64,000 nt of DNA from Bacteroidota bacterium (GTDB taxonomy: Bacteria > Bacteroidota > Bacteroidia > Flavobacteriales > Flavobacteriaceae), in assembly GCA_039714555.1 (NCBI GenBank), contig JBDLJB010000009.1, positions 17,379-81,378 of the forward strand, written 5' to 3'. The position numbers and the translations under genes are program-made. Below are positions 8,006-14,320 of this stretch, piece after piece; the first letter of the stretch is position 1; each line of letters starts with the position of its first letter. The notes below the pieces were generated by a model. That model worked only from the letters and a program-made list of their open reading frames with translations. It had not been told where the DNA came from and did no database searches.

Positions 8006-8893
8006 ATGACAGGATTTTTTGCGATTTTAGATGATATTGCTACATTAATGGATGATGTAGCTGTAATGTCAAAGATAGCTGCTAAGAAAACAGCTGGAGT
8101 ATTGGGCGACGATTTGGCCGTAGGAGCTGATCAGGCATCAAGTTTTAGAGCTTCGAGAGAATTACCGGTACTTTGGGCTATTACTAAAGGGTCATTTTTA
8201 AACAAGTTGATTATTTTACCATTTGCTTTTTTGTTAAGTGCTTTTTTACCACAATTAATTGTACCCATTTTACTTATTGGTGGAGTATATCTTAGTTATG
8301 AAGGAGTTGAAAAAATTATTCACACATTTTTTCATAAAGAAAACCATAACATAGATGAAATAATTGAAAGTAAAAGTTCAAAAGAGCTGCTTGAAGTTGA
8401 AAAATCAAAGATTAAAACAACTATTCTAACAGATTTTATACTATCTATTGAGATTATTATGATTGCTTTAGGAACTGTTTCAGATCAACCACTTATGAAA
8501 CAAATTTTAGTTGTATCAATTATTGCTATTGTTGCAACTGTTGGTGTATATGGAATTGTAGCTTTGATGGTTCGTATGGATGATACCGGGTATAAATTGG
8601 TAAAGAATGCAAGAGGAAAATCTAAGTTTGTCAAATCAGCTTTTGTAGCAACAGGTAAAGGTTTGGTTTGGACCTTGCCAAAACTTATTAAATTACTTGG
8701 TATTGTTGGTACCATTGCGATGTTATTGGTAGGAGGAGGAATGTTTGTTCATAATATTCACCAGATTCATGAATTTTTTCATGCAATACCTATTATTGTT
8801 ACAGAACTTGTTATGGGATTGATTGTAGGGCTTATTGCTTTTATTATTGTGGAAACCTTTAAGAAGGTTAAAACAAAATTATCTAATAAGTAG
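8006..8893 (+). CDS. DUF808 (YedI-like) inner-membrane protein
   Basis: The N-terminus FFAILDDIATLMDDVAVMSKIAAKKTAGVLGDDLAV is the hallmark DUF808 start. Multiple TM helices follow. Confidence 0.8.
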   Translation: MTGFFAILDDIATLMDDVAVMSKIAAKKTAGVLGDDLAVGADQASSFRASRELPVLWAITKGSFLNKLIILPFAFLLSAFLPQLIVPILLIGGVYLSYEGVEKIIHTFFHKENHNIDEIIESKSSKELLEVEKSKIKTTILTDFILSIEIIMIALGTVSDQPLMKQILVVSIIAIVATVGVYGIVALMVRMDDTGYKLVKNARGKSKFVKSAFVATGKGLVWTLPKLIKLLGIVGTIAMLLVGGGMFVHNIHQIHEFFHAIPIIVTELVMGLIVGLIAFIIVETFKKVKTKLSNK

Positions 8894-9113
8894 GTTTTGT
8901 GTAAAATGTGTATCAACAAAATATATCTATTTTAGTTTTAATATGAGTATTGGTAGATAAATCGGCTTTTTTTTTAACAGAGACCAATTAAATTAAAAAG
9001 TAAATTAAGTTTATTATTTTTTATTTTTGTGTACCATATAATTTTTTTTTAGTTTTATATTTTAACAAATTATTTAGTGTGCTGAAATCATTCAAGTATA
9101 ATTATAATTGACC

Positions 9114-11225
9114 ATGTTTAAAAATTCAAAATTCTATACAACATTCCTGATCATTTTTTTATTTTTATTTTTTTATACTGTGTATGATTATTACCAATAT
9201 AATGAAAAAAGAGATAAACAAGCTATTCAAAAAGGTGAAAGTAAAAGAAATGAAACTAAAAACATTCTAAATGGTGCTTTAGATACAATTGAAAGTGTGA
9301 CTTTGAATTTGGCTGAAAAATTATCAAAAAAACATTATTCAAAAAGTCAAATTGAAGAATTAATAAGACGAACTACTATTGAAAATGAATTTTGTCTTGG
9401 AATTACAGCTGCTTTTGAACCATTATATATTAATGATTCTTCTAAACAGTTATATGCCCCTTTTTATACTCGAAAGTATGATAAAATAGAATATATTGAA
9501 AATTCTTATGACTACACAAATGATACGATTAGCACTGCCCAATGGTACACCAAAGTTATTCAACAAAAAAAAGGTGTTTGGAGTGATCCATATATTGGAC
9601 AAGTAGCGCAAGAATTGGTTGTAGATTACGGAATTCCTTTTTATCAAACTGATAGGTCCGGCAACAATAATATTGCCGGAGTAATATCTTTTACTATATC
9701 TACATCTCATATTACTAATTATCTTCATGATATTACTTTAGGGAAAGCGGGTTTTGCATTTATTGCTAATAAAGATTTATATTTAATTTCTCACCCATCA
9801 ACAGAATTAATGACTAAACCTGAAAGGTCAAGAGAATTATTAAAAAGTCAACCTATATATAAATCATTAAATGAAAGAAAAGAAGGATATTTTACAGGGT
9901 ATAGTATCATTGCTCAAGAAGATGCTGAGTTTTTCTTTACAGAACTTAATAATCAGTGGATATTAGCTGTTGTTATACCAAAACATGATTTACAGGAATA
10001 TACAAGTAAAATTTCAAGAAAATTAATTCATATATCTATATTTCTAACATTAACCTTAATTGCTTTTATAATTTTATTCTTAAAAATATGGGAAGGCAAT
10101 ACCAGAAATTTATGGTTGTTTTCATTTTCAATTGGCACCTTATTATTTCTAAATATAGTTTTTCTTTGGTATCTTAATAAAAGTGATGAGTTTTATAATG
10201 ATAAAGCTGAACAAACAAAAATACTGAGTATTACCACTGTTGATAATTATCTTAATACCCGAAATAAAAAGCTTAAACAGATTGACTCTTCATTAGAGTT
10301 AGTTGAAATTCCAACAGGTGTTTTTTTATATGACATTGATTTTAAGAATGCTTATGATGTTGCAATAATTGGGAAGATATGGCAAAAAATACCAGATAAC
10401 TTTGAGTTAAAAAATGAGACAACCTTTGTTTTTCCTCAAGCTTCTGCTACTGGAATTTCAGTTCGAACAAGGCCAATGTCGAAAGAACATATTGATGATT
10501 ATTGGCTATATAGTTATGATTTTAATGCAACAATTCAGTTTGATTTTAATTATTTAAAATACCCACTAAATTATAAAAAACTAGATCTACAAATTACTTA
10601 TCCGCATATAGACGATAATGTAGTATTAACTCCAGATATACAATCCTATGAATTTGTAGATCCTTCATTAAACCCTGGAGTTAGTAGTGATATATATATG
10701 CCAAATTCAAAAGTTTTAGAATCCTATTTTTCATTTCATGAACATAATTTTTACACTAATTTAGGAAATAATTATTATAAAGGGTTAAAAGAAACCGCAG
10801 TATTAACCTTTAATGTTTTGATTAAAAATGTTATTATTAGTTCAATTATTTCAAACATCATTCCAGCTTTTATTATTGCTGTAATGTTATTCTTATTGCC
10901 TTTTACAATTGATAAAAGGGATGGTGAAATAAAAGAAGGTGGTGCTTTAAATATTATTCAGGCTGCAGGTGGTTTCTTTTTTGTTTTATTGCTTGCACAT
11001 ATACAATTAAGAAATGATATTGAAACACCGGGATTGATCTATCTTGAAACTTTATATTTTGTAATGTATTTTATGTTGGCAATTATGTCAACTGCAGTAC
11101 TGCTATTTTTAAAAACCAATGATTATAAAATTTTAGAATATAAACATAACCTAATTTTTAAATTGAGTTATTGGCCAATTTTATTTTTAAGTATTTATAT
11201 AATTTCATTATATATATTTTATTAA
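9114..11225 (+). CDS. double-Cache sensor fused to a prokaryotic pentameric ligand-gated ion channel (Cys-loop superfamily homologue), 7 predicted TM
   Basis: Domain order is TM1, dCache-like region, TM2-TM3 hairpin, pLGIC-like extracellular domain, then M1-M4. The dCache motifs are AQWYTKV, WSDPYIGQ, VVDYGIPFY, GVISFTIS and GKAGFAFIANKDLYLISHP. The extracellular-domain motifs are IPTGVFLYDIDF, KYPLNYKKLDLQI and NVVLTPD. The channel helices include IIPAFIIAVMLF, LLLAHI and ETPGLIYLETLYFVMYF. The track start at 9108 is TTG; the first ATG is at 9114. Confidence 0.75.
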   Translation: MFKNSKFYTTFLIIFLFLFFYTVYDYYQYNEKRDKQAIQKGESKRNETKNILNGALDTIESVTLNLAEKLSKKHYSKSQIEELIRRTTIENEFCLGITAAFEPLYINDSSKQLYAPFYTRKYDKIEYIENSYDYTNDTISTAQWYTKVIQQKKGVWSDPYIGQVAQELVVDYGIPFYQTDRSGNNNIAGVISFTISTSHITNYLHDITLGKAGFAFIANKDLYLISHPSTELMTKPERSRELLKSQPIYKSLNERKEGYFTGYSIIAQEDAEFFFTELNNQWILAVVIPKHDLQEYTSKISRKLIHISIFLTLTLIAFIILFLKIWEGNTRNLWLFSFSIGTLLFLNIVFLWYLNKSDEFYNDKAEQTKILSITTVDNYLNTRNKKLKQIDSSLELVEIPTGVFLYDIDFKNAYDVAIIGKIWQKIPDNFELKNETTFVFPQASATGISVRTRPMSKEHIDDYWLYSYDFNATIQFDFNYLKYPLNYKKLDLQITYPHIDDNVVLTPDIQSYEFVDPSLNPGVSSDIYMPNSKVLESYFSFHEHNFYTNLGNNYYKGLKETAVLTFNVLIKNVIISSIISNIIPAFIIAVMLFLLPFTIDKRDGEIKEGGALNIIQAAGGFFFVLLLAHIQLRNDIETPGLIYLETLYFVMYFMLAIMSTAVLLFLKTNDYKILEYKHNLIFKLSYWPILFLSIYIISLYIFY

Positions 11226-11237
11226 CATCTTATTTTT

Positions 11238-12353
11238 ATGAAATTAATTTTTATATCACTTGTCATATTTATTTTTGGGATAAGTTTTTTACATGCACAG
11301 GAAGAAATTAACACTTCAAGTCAAGATACTTTAATAGTTGGCTATAATATCAATGCACCTTTTATTTATAAAGATAATGATAAATTAGAAGGATTAAGTT
11401 ATAGATTATGGCAAAAGATAACTGCAAATGACAATAATTTTTATAAATTAGAATATTACCCATTGGATAGTTTACTGTTGGGTTTGTCAAATGGTTCTAT
11501 TGACATAGGATTATCACCATTAACTATAACAAGCGATAGAAGTGAAAAGATAGATTTTTCAGTACCGTATTATATTTCAAATTCAACGGTAATAGTTAAA
11601 AAATTAAATTTTAAGCAGAAAGTTTCTAGATTTTATTCTTCCATTTCCATAATAAATTTCCTAAAGATTTTGGGTTTTTTATTTATTTTATTAGCAGTCT
11701 TTGGCCTTTTTGTCTGGATATTTGAAGGTGGTAAAAATGAAGAATTCGGCAAGGGTATTCATGGCTTTTGGAATGGAATCTGGTGGTCAGCAGTAACAAT
11801 GACCACAGTAGGGTATGGAGATAAATCCCCAAAAACATTTGGTGGAAGAGTTGTTGGTTTGATCTGGATGTTTGCGGCAATTATTTTAATCTCAAGTATT
11901 ACTGCAGGAATTACTTCATCGCTTACCGTTAAAAAATTAAGCTGGTCCAATGATGATTTATCTACATTTAAAGAAGTTACAATAGGTACTGTAAAAGGTT
12001 CGGCAACCGAACGGAGATTACTTGATAATTATTACAATAATTTAAAAAGCTATCATACTTTTGATGAATTATTATATGGCTTAAAAAAAGATGAAGTTCA
12101 AGTTGTTGCTTATGATGAACCTCTTTTACGATTTGTTCTTAAAAATGAAAAGGATTTTAAAGATTTTGAATTTTTAAATATTTCATTTAATCAATCTTTA
12201 TATGCCATGGGCTTTTCTAAAAAGTTAAGTGCCAAGAAAAAAGCTGAAATGTCACAAAAAATATTAGAATTTTCTGAAAGTAATGATTGGAAGATCTTGT
12301 TATCAAAATACGATCTGATTAACAATCAACGTCTTATTTTAGAAACAAAGTAA
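11238..12353 (+). CDS. GluR0-type prokaryotic ionotropic glutamate-receptor homologue (substrate-binding domain interrupted by a K+ channel pore)
   Basis: A signal peptide is followed by the S1 lobe (LIVGYNINAPFIY...LTITSDRSEKIDFSVPYY). Next come M1 (ILGFLFILLAVFGLFVWIF), the pore helix and filter WWSAVTMTTVGYGDKSP, and M2 (VVGLIWMFAAIILISSITAGI). The S2 lobe follows (TIGTVKGSATE...VVAYDEPLL). There is no further TM. Confidence 0.8.
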   Translation: MKLIFISLVIFIFGISFLHAQEEINTSSQDTLIVGYNINAPFIYKDNDKLEGLSYRLWQKITANDNNFYKLEYYPLDSLLLGLSNGSIDIGLSPLTITSDRSEKIDFSVPYYISNSTVIVKKLNFKQKVSRFYSSISIINFLKILGFLFILLAVFGLFVWIFEGGKNEEFGKGIHGFWNGIWWSAVTMTTVGYGDKSPKTFGGRVVGLIWMFAAIILISSITAGITSSLTVKKLSWSNDDLSTFKEVTIGTVKGSATERRLLDNYYNNLKSYHTFDELLYGLKKDEVQVVAYDEPLLRFVLKNEKDFKDFEFLNISFNQSLYAMGFSKKLSAKKKAEMSQKILEFSESNDWKILLSKYDLINNQRLILETK

Positions 12354-12354
12354 A

Positions 12355-13056
12355 TTATTCCACAACATTAGGATTTTTCATCAAACCAAATTTATCTATT
12401 GGCATTTCTACAAAATGCTCTAACATTTCTTGAATATCACCTTCTACAACTGATAGATCTTCTCTGATCAATTGTACAAGATTATCTAAGGACACAAAAT
12501 ATTCTTTAAAAGAATCTTCTTCTAATGGAATTTCCAAACTTTTATAAATTGAAGCAAGAAAATCTGGATGCTTATTAAAATATTTTACGAAGTGTTTAAT
12601 TTGTTTTTTTGACATATTTCGGGGATATAAGCAGCCATATACCTTTAATTGCACTATGAATTGTGAAAAGGTTGAAACTAAATCAGAACTTGCAACCATA
12701 GCTGATTCACCTATTTTATTTTCTACCACTTCAATTTCATCTTTATCGATGAAACCATCATCATCCATTTTAAAAATTATTTCTAAAATATTTTGATACA
12801 TATCAATTTTTTTATCAAATAATTTTTTTTCAAATTCACCTTCTCTTTCATGCCTGGATTGTATTTTCATAACTACCATCATTGCAGCAACAGTAAACGA
12901 TGCCCCTAAGGTTGCAGCTAAAATTTCAATGGTAAAATCACTAACTCCCTGTTTAAAAAAAAGATGTAAAAATAAGAATGCAAAAATTGCAAAGATTGCC
13001 GCATAGAGTACAATTAATGAATCCCTTTGCTTTGAAGTTTTATTTTTTTTCATCAT
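12355..13056 (-). CDS. two-TM membrane protein with a cytoplasmic helical domain, unknown function
   Basis: Track ORF. It has a basic N-terminus, two hydrophobic helices and an acidic soluble domain of about 160 aa. Its stop lies 1 nt from the stop of the convergent gene at 12353. Confidence 0.55.
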   Translation of the reverse strand: MMKKNKTSKQRDSLIVLYAAIFAIFAFLFLHLFFKQGVSDFTIEILAATLGASFTVAAMMVVMKIQSRHEREGEFEKKLFDKKIDMYQNILEIIFKMDDDGFIDKDEIEVVENKIGESAMVASSDLVSTFSQFIVQLKVYGCLYPRNMSKKQIKHFVKYFNKHPDFLASIYKSLEIPLEEDSFKEYFVSLDNLVQLIREDLSVVEGDIQEMLEHFVEMPIDKFGLMKNPNVVE

Positions 13057-13141: not shown

Positions 13142-14320
13142 TTAGTTTATTAAATTTATATGTTTACTCCATGTTTTATCAAAATCAATTCTCAAACCAA
13201 TAACAAAAACGTTAGATCTTTCTGCCCCTGATTCGTCAAAACTTTTGTTATTATATCTATACTCAGAATAAACAGAAGCATATTTAAGGAAATGATATTG
13301 TGCGCCTAACAAATAAAAACGTTTGCTAAAATCTTTAGGTAATAATCTGTTATCTGATTCGGGTTTTTCATAATTAATTCCTGCCAATACCTTTAAATGA
13401 TTATTCATAAATGAATAAGTAGCTACAATTTCATAACCTTTTCCCGGATATACTATAGATTCAAGTTCTTCTGTTTCAGGATTAATAATATTGACAAAAT
13501 CACCATTTTTCTGACTTGCATAAATAGCAGATATTAATAACGGTCCATTTTTATAATCAATTCCTGCGGTAAAATATATAGGGTCACCTTCTAATCCTTG
13601 AAGATTTGGAAGTTCTAAAAACTTTGGCCCTAATAATGCTTTATTGTAAGCTGTACCTAAGGTTAAATGATCTGTTAAATGAAGCCTTAAAGAAGCACCA
13701 TAATTATCAAAAATATTTGAACCGCCCCTGGCTCTCATTTGTGTTTGTAAACCCACATCAAATTTCCAAAACGAATTTCTATAAATAATGGCACTTTCAG
13801 CTCTACCGGTTCCTGTTTCCCCACCATCGCCACCAGTTGGAGAATATACATAACTCGCCTGTGCACTTATAACATTAAAAATATCTGTTTTTCCGGCTAC
13901 ATCTTTATAAACACTATTCAATTTACCAATTGTTAAATTACCGTATTCAGCAAAATCAACCCCTAAAAAACCCAATCGAGTTGAAAAAGTACTTTTTTTA
14001 TCACTAAATTCTAAAATAGTAAAGCCATCATTACTTGTGTTTGGGTCAGCTTGAAAGCTAAATTGATTGTCAATTAAATTAACCGCAAACTCACCACCAA
14101 AATAAACTTTAAACTTTTCATTTTCTCCAAAATAATAGTCAAATTCAAAACCTACTCTGGGGCTAGCATCCTGTATTTCGGTTTCACCATTAAATGCAGC
14201 TAAATGTGCTCTAAAAATTCCATAAGTATTAAACTCTAAATTTTTTGTTAATGTATCTTCTTGACTGATTATTGATCCAGTAAAAAATAGGAAGACGAAA
14301 AAAGAAAATATTTGTTTCAT
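13142..14320 (-). CDS. outer-membrane porin-like beta-barrel protein
   Basis: Signal peptide MKQIFSFFVFLFFTGSIISQ followed by alternating amphipathic beta-strand patterns rich in Tyr/Gly/Asn/Phe. The family assignment is generic. Confidence 0.55.
   Translation of the reverse strand: MKQIFSFFVFLFFTGSIISQEDTLTKNLEFNTYGIFRAHLAAFNGETEIQDASPRVGFEFDYYFGENEKFKVYFGGEFAVNLIDNQFSFQADPNTSNDGFTILEFSDKKSTFSTRLGFLGVDFAEYGNLTIGKLNSVYKDVAGKTDIFNVISAQASYVYSPTGGDGGETGTGRAESAIIYRNSFWKFDVGLQTQMRARGGSNIFDNYGASLRLHLTDHLTLGTAYNKALLGPKFLELPNLQGLEGDPIYFTAGIDYKNGPLLISAIYASQKNGDFVNIINPETEELESIVYPGKGYEIVATYSFMNNHLKVLAGINYEKPESDNRLLPKDFSKRFYLLGAQYHFLKYASVYSEYRYNNKSFDESGAERSNVFVIGLRIDFDKTWSKHINLIN

Follow-up and report, generated by a model that had tools for sequence, protein, structure and literature searches.

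[quoted passage not shown] It is a member of a known, experimentally uncharacterised family whose architecture was published in 2004. It would thus be a bacterial relative of the nicotinic/GABA receptor channels, with a Cache sensor and three extra membrane helices placed in front. The gene lies on the plus strand of the window (the whole stretch of 64,000 nucleotides that was analysed) as an ORF at 9108/9114..11225, where the ATG at 9114 gives a 703-aa product, entered at NCBI as a 'hypothetical protein' of a Bacteroidota MAG.

Gene and domain organization

The protein consists of a first transmembrane helix (TM1), the dCache sensor, the TM2-TM3 hairpin (loop of 6-9 aa), a beta-rich domain and four C-terminal TMs. 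The features of the locus are as follows.

9114..11225, + strand: whole dCache-pLGIC fusion gene, 703 aa plus stop codon (MEN8124521.1)
9135..9197, + strand: TM1 (aa ~8-28), a signal-anchor continuing into the long N-terminal Cache helix (hydropathy; model helix 5-72)
9198..10004, + strand: periplasmic double-Cache sensor (dCache_1, or two PDC modules; aa ~29-297), from Pfam, solved structures and the full-length model
10017..10082, + strand: TM2 (aa ~302-323), periplasm to cytoplasm, poorly conserved in sequence
10083..10106, + strand: cytoplasmic hairpin loop KIWEGNTR (aa 324-331)
10107..10175, + strand: TM3 (aa ~332-354), cytoplasm to periplasm, with a conserved face W334, S337, S341, I348, W352
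10215..10832, + strand: extracellular (periplasmic) domain of the pLGIC (aa ~368-573), a beta sandwich preceded by an N-terminal helix
10539..10589, + strand: Pro-loop (Cys-loop equivalent) FDFNYLKYPLNYKKLDL (aa 476-492), with P484 invariant and N486 replacing the usual Asp
10833..11222, + strand: pLGIC transmembrane domain (M1 574-598, M2 608-635, M3 641-667, M4 680-702)
11238..12353, + strand: GluR0-type ionotropic-glutamate-receptor homologue, probable operon partner, co-oriented and 12 nt downstream

Seven TMs per subunit had been proposed in the initial annotation, and Kyte-Doolittle hydropathy indeed gives seven hydrophobic segments (aa ~8-28, 302-324, 332-354, 575-597, 610-632, 643-667 and 682-702). 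All the peptides that it quoted are found in the translation (AQWYTKV, WSDPYIGQ, VVDYGIPFY, GVISFTIS, GKAGFAFIANKDLYLISHP, IPTGVFLYDIDF, KYPLNYKKLDLQI, NVVLTPD and the rest), including the two back-to-back TMs with their EGNTRN loop. In the channel part, M1 carries P584, M2 harbors F623, H629 and R633, all nearly invariant or invariant, and M3 contains Y643, E645 and Y648. The M3-M4 loop is short (~14 aa), and the C-terminal ...FY is conserved.

Homology of the C-terminal half to pLGICs

No channel family was returned by Pfam and NCBIfam scans of the whole protein and of its C-terminal half. Neur_chan_LBD (PF02931) and Neur_chan_memb (PF02932) had no match at E <= 10 in the C-terminal half, nor at E <= 1 among 31 family members, indicating that the family is very divergent. 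Searched as a single sequence against PDB sequences, the C-terminal half gave only noise, and a profile built from only 5 sequences yielded nAChR matches that were non-significant (E ~0.3) yet lay where expected, from pre-M1 to M3. A 31-sequence family profile matched GLIC at E = 3.4e-6 (HMMER, query 84-318); this search had 82 matches, and at least 60 among the matches listed are GLIC constructs or GLIC chimeras. An hhalign comparison with GLIC gave a probability of 96.6% and E = 5e-10 over a region that spans beta6 to M1 and ends at M1. The AlphaFold models, which are monomers, point in the same direction. For the C-terminal half (pLDDT 83.5, pTM 0.76), the best 50 Foldseek matches are all pLGICs (DeCLIC, GLIC, sTeLIC, ELIC, GABA-A), with ~340 aligned columns, TM-scores of 0.52-0.63 and E ~1e-11, and the corresponding half of the full-length model (pLDDT 88.7, pTM 0.80) also matches pLGICs.

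The identification of this half as a pLGIC, which the initial annotation had drawn from GLIC motifs, is therefore borne out by the family profile, hhalign and the Foldseek matches. Of the profile and structure comparisons that it had proposed, those with the GLIC, ELIC and DeCLIC structures were positive, whereas the two Pfam models did not match. Its motif pairings with GLIC recur in the HMMER and/or published alignment for the beta1 TG, the Pro-loop, NVVLTPD and the M1 proline. The pairing of LLLAHI with GLIC TLIAHI appears in neither the HMMER alignment nor the rows of the published alignment used here.

The proline of the Cys/Pro-loop is absolutely conserved in pLGICs (Jaiteh et al. 2016, PMC4795631), and P484 is present in MEN8124521.1 and in 147/147 family sequences, while the M1 proline P584 is found in 141/147. 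An acidic Pro-loop residue and a basic pre-M1 residue are also highly conserved, according to Fig. 1 of Tasneem et al. (PMC549065). Both the Pro-loop Asp and the pre-M1 Arg are absent from MEN8124521.1, which has N486 and N572, as in its own N-N clade. Among the 147 sequences the two positions covary (D-R in 113, G-K in 11, E-R in 5 and N-N in 4), and since the pair is highly conserved rather than absolute, the Asn/Asn combination is no bar to pLGIC membership. The two prolines and this covarying pair are hallmarks of the gating interface. Strongly conserved residues of the extracellular domain include W423, Q424, Y512 and the P521-G522 pair.

For M2, the HMMER alignment, the published alignment rows and helix-end matching to GLIC are offset from each other by multiples of four residues. 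Because these three registers disagree and hhalign ends at M1, assignment of ion selectivity and of the 9' gate was dropped, and the gate residues are left uncalled.

Cache sensor and membrane topology

The double-Cache nature of the N-terminal half, also proposed at the outset, is supported by Pfam and by structure. MCP-like_PDC_1 matches aa 80-202 with E = 6.7e-16 (59.2 bits, cutoff 27), and dCache_1 matches aa 132-286 with E = 4.7e-10 (39.8 bits, under its 45-bit cutoff); the latter model is also matched in 49/50 full-length relatives. The N-terminal half further matches the solved dCache ligand-binding domains 6iop, 9hvj and 3lic, and in the full-length model it matches the dCache sensors 3lib, 3lic, PctD and Mlp24, with target-normalised TM-scores of up to 0.85 for the Cache fold against 3lib, 3lic and 6ios. 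The amino-acid motif of dCache_1AA comprises Y121, R126, W128, Y144 and D173 in PctA numbering (Gumerov et al. 2022, PMC8915833). It is incomplete in the Cache pocket here: W144, Y145 and Y160 are present, whereas A142 replaces the carboxyl-binding R126 and, in the 6iop alignment, T194 the amino-binding D173. With these motif residues missing, an amino acid or amine as the Cache ligand is unsupported, and no ligand class was assigned.

Whether the Cache and the channel extracellular domain lie on the same side of the membrane had been raised beforehand as one of the points to check. Helix parity (1 + 2 + 4 TMs) and positive-inside statistics predict that both are periplasmic. The N-terminus ahead of TM1 is short and Lys/Arg-rich and is therefore predicted to be cytoplasmic. 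Lys and Arg are enriched there and in the hairpin, M1-M2 and M3-M4 loops, and show no enrichment in the M2-M3 loop. The TM2-TM3 hairpin is present in 121/124 full-length cluster representatives, with a loop that across the family has a median length of 9 aa and a net positive charge. TM3 has a conserved face of small residues and Trp, which suggests specific packing, whereas TM2 lacks such a face.

Distribution of the family and integrity of the gene

An exhaustive search was required to recover the family, as word-indexed homologue searches, even with a profile, found 5-7 relatives only. It identified 1474 representatives of clusters at 50% identity (E <= 1e-3), nearly all of ~700 aa, in Bacteroidota, Gammaproteobacteria and Methanosarcina. 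In databases, the members are labelled only 'cache domain-containing' or 'hypothetical', because the Pfam channel models miss the family. One relative, in Rheinheimera, lacks the Cache and consists of one N-terminal TM and the channel module; this gene, which adjoins a transposase, is possibly a remnant.

The possibility that the ORF is an artefact, in which mis-assembly or read-through joined a Cache-sensor gene to a separate channel gene, is refuted. It could draw on four related metagenomic loci (L001, L002, L009 and L012) where the two parts were called as separate ORFs. However, these splits are frame changes at differing points within a continuous coding region, with ORFs that overlap or abut, and are best read as frameshifts in lower-quality assemblies. 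On one of these contigs, further genes are split as well. Moreover, the isolate genome of Namhaeicola litoreus contains an intact single ORF of 707 aa, NCBI annotates the identical 703-aa product, and at least 124 full-length cluster representatives share the architecture. The fusion is thus genuine, and the check for mis-assembly that the initial annotation had called for came out negative.

Relation to the published family

The combination 'MCP-N + Cache + ART-LGIC' was described in the computational study of Tasneem, Iyer, Jakobsson and Aravind (2004, PMC549065), in the rows Chut2789 (Cytophaga hutchinsonii), MA1624 and Meth2754 (Methanosarcina) and Mdeg1480 (Microbulbifer degradans). In the rows compared here, the family motifs are present and the ligand-binding domain of these proteins begins near residue 375. 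They share with MEN8124521.1 a length of ~700 aa, the N-terminal Cache sensor and the motifs IPTG.., G..WQ, FDY..YPFD, L.PD..SY, FFFV....HI.LR, YLEY.YF and the C-terminal ...FY. In the channel module, MEN8124521.1 is 23-35% identical to members of this family and only ~25-30% identical to the published proteins, and it has Asn/Asn in place of the Asp/Arg interface pair. The family representative P0044 (Cytophaga aurantiaca) closely resembles the Chut2789 row by eye.

The initial annotation had credited this study with extra N-terminal small-molecule-binding domains, which is right but understated, since the MCP-N + Cache fusion is named there and the rows belong to the same family; the novelty that it implied for the architecture was accordingly overrated. 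In the text and legends of the 2004 study consulted here, the extra domains are placed 'between the signal peptide and the LBD', without the TM2-TM3 hairpin or the 7-TM topology, both of which were found in the present analysis. Relative to that text, the present additions are the conserved 7-TM topology with its conserved TM3, the invisibility of the family to Pfam and a probable operon, specific to the clade, that includes a GluR0-type K+ channel. A literature search for later descriptions or characterisation of a Cache-pLGIC fusion retrieved this study only.

A neighboring GluR0-type gene

The gene 12 nt downstream matches SBP_bac_3, Ion_trans_2 and Lig_chan, has a TVGYGD filter in its translation and aligns with GluA2 at E ~1e-17 across S1-pore-S2. 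By these features it is predicted to be a GluR0-type iGluR K+ channel, whose SBP_bac_3 lobes, of periplasmic-binding-protein type II, are interrupted by an M1-P-M2 K+ pore. The gene order is kept in 6 related loci (L003, L004, L005, L007, L009 and L012). A scan for sigma-70 promoters and terminators gave 41 promoter sites against 33 expected and no terminator. In this Flavobacteriaceae clade the gene pair probably works together as a single chemo-electrical sensing unit, and its conservation suggests electrical signalling in bacteria that employs homologues of the two synaptic receptor superfamilies.

Proposed mechanism and alternatives

We consider it reasonably likely that a ligand sensed by the Cache domain gates a pentameric pLGIC, whose ion flux shifts the membrane potential. 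TM1 anchors the sensor in the periplasm, and the tightly paired TM2 and TM3 reach the cytoplasm and bring the chain back to the periplasm, where a complete pLGIC subunit follows (Pro-loop beta-sandwich extracellular domain, then M1-M4). On the model of all pLGICs characterised so far, five subunits would surround a single central pore lined by M2, and five Cache domains would encircle the periplasmic domain of the channel. Cache domains, normally dimeric, are also known from proteins other than dimeric receptors, such as the alpha2delta subunit of calcium channels. The accessory N-terminal domains of DeCLIC form a pentameric ring and, by this precedent, a pentameric arrangement should in principle present no obstacle to a Cache domain. 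Binding of a small molecule to the membrane-distal Cache module could be relayed to the gate by the TM2-TM3 hairpin, which would pack around the edge of the transmembrane domain, or by the sensor touching the extracellular domain directly in the periplasm. Gate opening would then produce an ion flux and alter the membrane potential. A more specific proposal, which we regard as speculative and on balance unlikely, is that the hairpin serves as a built-in auxiliary element passing Cache movement to the lipid-facing periphery of the channel, the fusion forming a two-channel chemo-electrical unit with the GluR0-type K+ channel in Flavobacteriaceae. If true, the hairpin route would represent a within-membrane gating undescribed for any pLGIC, and the unit would pair homologues of both major fast neurotransmitter receptor families. 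The family would in either case offer a natural test case for a classical bacterial chemosensor domain controlling a Cys-loop-type channel, and for the role of three extra TMs per subunit (35 TMs per predicted pentamer).

The main competing account, possible though clearly the less probable, is that gating takes place chiefly at the channel's own extracellular domain in response to a ligand, pH or divalent cations, as happens in GLIC, sTeLIC, ELIC or DeCLIC, the Cache being merely modulatory and the hairpin the topological cost of joining a two-TM sensor to an exported domain. The DeCLIC accessory domain modulates and does not gate, TM2 is poorly conserved, and many extracellular residues, W423, Q424, Y512 and P521-G522 among them, are under strong conservation. 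The Cache-less Rheinheimera relative, with its single N-terminal TM and channel module, suggests that the core could function by itself, although this gene, lying next to a transposase, may be a leftover. Retention of dCache in nearly all full-length members and of the whole architecture in at least 124 divergent representatives, together with the small-residue/Trp face of TM3 that suggests specific packing, speaks against this account.

It is quite improbable that the pLGIC-like module has lost ion conduction and serves the Cache sensors as a pentameric membrane scaffold or as a signal transducer. The divergence of the family from the Pfam channel models would fit such a loss, as would an M2 that is unusual in some registers (small residues at the expected 9' Leu, along with an Arg that is invariant and a Phe that is nearly so) and the lack of the D-R interface pair in MEN8124521.1. 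However, the four TM helices, the Pro-loop and M1 prolines and the covarying pair are conserved under evident selection, and the M2 stripe common to all three registers, which is the putative pore-facing one, keeps gate-type hydrophobic rings (I615, F622/F623 and L626). Furthermore, a cytoplasmic output domain is absent, the M3-M4 loop being only ~14 aa. Gating of a conducting channel by the Cache sensor is the reading we prefer.

Comparison with known systems

Compared with DeCLIC from Desulfofustis, whose chain presumably does not re-cross the membrane and would thus have 4 TMs per subunit, MEN8124521.1 has 7. DeCLIC (PDB 6v4a, 7q3g, 9ftg) is the best Foldseek match of the channel module (E = 1.4e-11) and the sole characterised pLGIC with an extra N-terminal domain (2025-26 papers). 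As here, a large periplasmic accessory domain precedes its extracellular domain; in DeCLIC this accessory domain is formed by two lobes related to calcium-binding regulatory domains and speeds gating (DeCLIC papers), whereas here it is a Cache. The best sequence-profile match is GLIC, the proton-gated channel of Gloeobacter (E = 3.4e-6; hhalign 96.6%), which aligns at the beta1 TG, the Pro-loop YP(F/L)(D/N), the pre-M1 region and the M1 Pro and likewise has a short M3-M4 loop. Identity to GLIC is ~12-15%; it has neither Cache nor extra TMs, and the M1-M2 loop is ~7-8 residues longer in MEN8124521.1.

On the sensor side, the dCache_1 chemoreceptors and kinases (Mlp24 6ios, PctA 5ltx, mmHK1S-Z3 3lib) have the same double-PDC fold and a long N-terminal helix continuous with TM1, as in MEN8124521.1. 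Their output is a cytoplasmic HAMP, kinase or MCP module, whereas here the same chain is predicted to supply a channel as the output. Finally, Cache domains tied to an ion channel also occur in the alpha2delta subunit of voltage-gated Ca2+ channels, as pointed out by Tasneem et al. (PMC549065) and Gumerov et al. (PMC8915833). There the Cache resides on an auxiliary subunit of its own, in a channel family that is unrelated, whereas in MEN8124521.1 it is fused in cis to the pLGIC.

The Cache-channel fusion gene

The ORF at 9108/9114-11225 (+) is uninterrupted, and from the ATG at 9114 it codes for a 703-aa protein identical to MEN8124521.1, labeled "hypothetical protein" by NCBI in a Bacteroidota MAG. 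The closest relatives (64-83% identity over the channel module) come from Flavobacteriaceae MAGs and one isolate genome, Namhaeicola litoreus. The initial annotation had read this gene as a fusion of a dCache sensor to a ligand-gated ion channel of the pentameric type (pLGIC), which is borne out by the intact ORF, dCache matches, a profile match to GLIC and Foldseek matches to pLGICs; all the peptides it cited are present in the translation. The window has a G + C content of about 29%. The 214-nt intergenic region 5' of the gene is AT-rich, and a candidate -7 promoter element (TATTTTTG, window 9022-9029, about 85 nt 5' of the ATG) matches TAnnTTTG, the Bacteroidetes -7 consensus.

Four orthologues from metagenome assemblies are called as split genes:

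Frameshifted orthologues in related loci
L001, 943-3001
L002, 190-2240
L009, 3905-6014
L012, 5336-7449

Gene callers emit from such broken orthologues seemingly stand-alone channel ORFs of 343-348 aa (P0003, P0004), and the breaks in L001 and L009 both fall right after a conserved NNWV at the end of the Cache domain. All four split calls are frameshifts inside one continuous coding region, probably assembly errors, and the isolate genome (N. litoreus) harbors a single 707-aa ORF. A mis-assembled fusion or a split gene was rejected.

The N-terminal sensor

Pfam domains in the N-terminal half
aa 80-202, MCP-like_PDC_1 (E = 6.7e-16)
aa 132-286, dCache_1 (E = 4.7e-10, under the curated cutoff)

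Sequence search also matched this half to dCache ligand-binding domains of solved structure (6iop, 9hvj, 3lic). In the full-length AlphaFold model (pLDDT 88.7, pTM 0.80) TM1 is continuous with the first helix of the Cache domain, which is long (helix 5-72), and Foldseek relates the N-terminal half to the dCache sensors 3lib, 3lic, PctD and Mlp24. The amino-acid-binding motif of dCache_1AA (Y121, R126, W128, Y144 and D173; PMC8915833) is only partial, the Arg being replaced by A142 and, by alignment to 6iop, the Asp by T194. dCache_1 was found in 49 of 50 full-length family members. Some members are longer by 250-370 aa at the N-terminus, for example P0080 (1077 aa, with a weak dCache_1 match at aa 364-437), P0130 (974 aa) and Mdeg1480 (966 aa).

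The channel module

As a single sequence, the C-terminal half had no match in Pfam, NCBIfam or PDB sequence search, and a five-sequence profile gave non-significant, though correctly placed, matches to nAChR. When 1.84 billion cluster representatives were searched exhaustively with HMMER, 1474 relatives scored E <= 1e-3 and 846 scored E <= 1e-30; almost all are ~700 aa long and carry the module at residues ~360-700. A profile built from 31 diverse modules, which share 23-35% identity with the window protein, matched GLIC with E = 3.4e-6, at least 60 of its 82 matches being GLIC constructs or chimeras, and hhalign against GLIC gave a probability of 96.6% (E = 5e-10) spanning beta6, the Pro-loop, beta10 and M1. 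The AlphaFold model of this half, with the 31-module alignment as input (pLDDT 83.5, pTM 0.76), has a helix at the N-terminus, some ten strands and four long helices; its best 50 Foldseek matches in PDB are all pLGICs (DeCLIC, GLIC, sTeLIC, ELIC, GABA-A; E ~1e-11, ~340 aligned columns). The proposed affinity to pLGIC families holds for GLIC by family profile and for pLGIC structures by Foldseek, but not for PF02931 and PF02932, which match none of the 31 modules. Family members carry solely the NCBI names "cache / PDC sensor domain-containing" or "hypothetical".

The Pro-loop proline, the sole absolutely conserved pLGIC residue (PMC4795631), is invariant (P484, 147/147 family sequences), and the M1 proline is kept in 141/147. 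The Pro-loop acidic residue covaries with the pre-M1 basic residue (D-R 113, G-K 11, E-R 5, N-N 4); N486/N572 is the N-N pair of the window's clade, and represents a real deviation in this protein. Three sources disagree on the M2 register relative to GLIC: HMMER places H629 at 19', the published alignment has a four-residue shift, and helix ends in the model place R633 at ~19' and F623 at ~9'. A pore stripe is common to all three (E608, L612, I615/Q616, G619, F622/F623, L626, H629/I630, R633). We infer that the protein forms pentamers and conducts ions.

Membrane topology

Hydropathy identifies seven hydrophobic segments (aa ~8-28, 302-324, 332-354, 575-597, 610-632, 643-667 and 682-702). The claim that both ligand-binding modules lie on the same membrane side of a 7-TM subunit is supported by helix parity (1 + 2 + 4) and by Lys/Arg enrichment at the N-terminus and in the TM2-TM3, M1-M2 and M3-M4 loops, with none in the M2-M3 loop. 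The TM2-TM3 hairpin (median loop 9 aa) is the norm across the family, two hydrophobic segments directly preceding the channel module in 121 of 124 full-length representatives. Among 50 divergent members, TM3 (window 10107-10175, aa 332-354) has a conserved face with the pattern W...S...S......I..IW (W334 in 44, S337 in 35, S341 in 36, I348 in 37 and W352 in 42), whereas TM2 is generic without conserved sequence, which hints that TM3 packs specifically.

Cache-less relative
L011 4875-5993, Rheinheimera maricola JAERPS020000001.1, longest ORF (TTG start, 372 aa)

This protein has a single N-terminal TM, equivalent to TM3, followed by the channel module; it may represent either a remnant or a 5-TM minimal form. 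A transposase lies ~1.2 kb 3' of it, beyond a glycoside hydrolase gene.

Genomic context

Neighboring genes in the window
8006-8893 (+), DUF808 membrane protein, upstream flank
11238-12353 (+), GluR0-type iGluR homologue, K+ pore (TVGYGD filter) inserted between SBP_bac_3 lobes
12355-13056 (-), predicted 233-aa membrane protein without Pfam family
13142-14320 (-), Porin_1 family porin, downstream flank

The GluR0-type gene, whose product matches GluA2 (E ~1e-17), starts 12 nt 3' of the Cache-pLGIC stop codon. This gene order is kept in six loci (L003, L004, L005, L007, L009, L012); the GluR0-type gene is not beside the 50%-identity clade (L001, L002), nor in L008. One probable operon thus encodes homologues of both synaptic receptor superfamilies. 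The 233-aa protein gene is inverted in the window; in L005, L007 and L009 its orthologue (~70% identical) comes after both channel genes and shares their strand. A porin also adjoins in L003 and L012.

Comparison with described channels

Tasneem, Iyer, Jakobsson and Aravind (Genome Biol 2004/5, PMC549065) presented MCP-N and Cache domains fused to the ART-LGIC core as a "third architectural theme", listing such fusions in Methanosarcina, Cytophaga and Microbulbifer. Their supplementary alignment includes rows for Chut2789 (709 aa, with its ligand-binding domain starting at residue 375), Meth2754, MA1624 and Mdeg1480. Since these rows carry the family motifs, from IPTG through the C-terminal ...LFY, and the Cytophaga aurantiaca representative is close to Chut2789 as judged by eye, the family is already described in the literature; the window protein adds a new member to a known, experimentally untouched family. 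Literature searches found no later work on Cache-pLGIC fusions. In the text and legends of PMC549065 the additional domains lie "between the signal peptide and the LBD", and a TM hairpin goes unmentioned. The present analysis adds the 7-TM topology found across the family, the gap in annotation and the probable channel-channel operon. According to the DeCLIC papers of 2025-26, no pLGIC with an N-terminal domain other than DeCLIC has been characterised to date.
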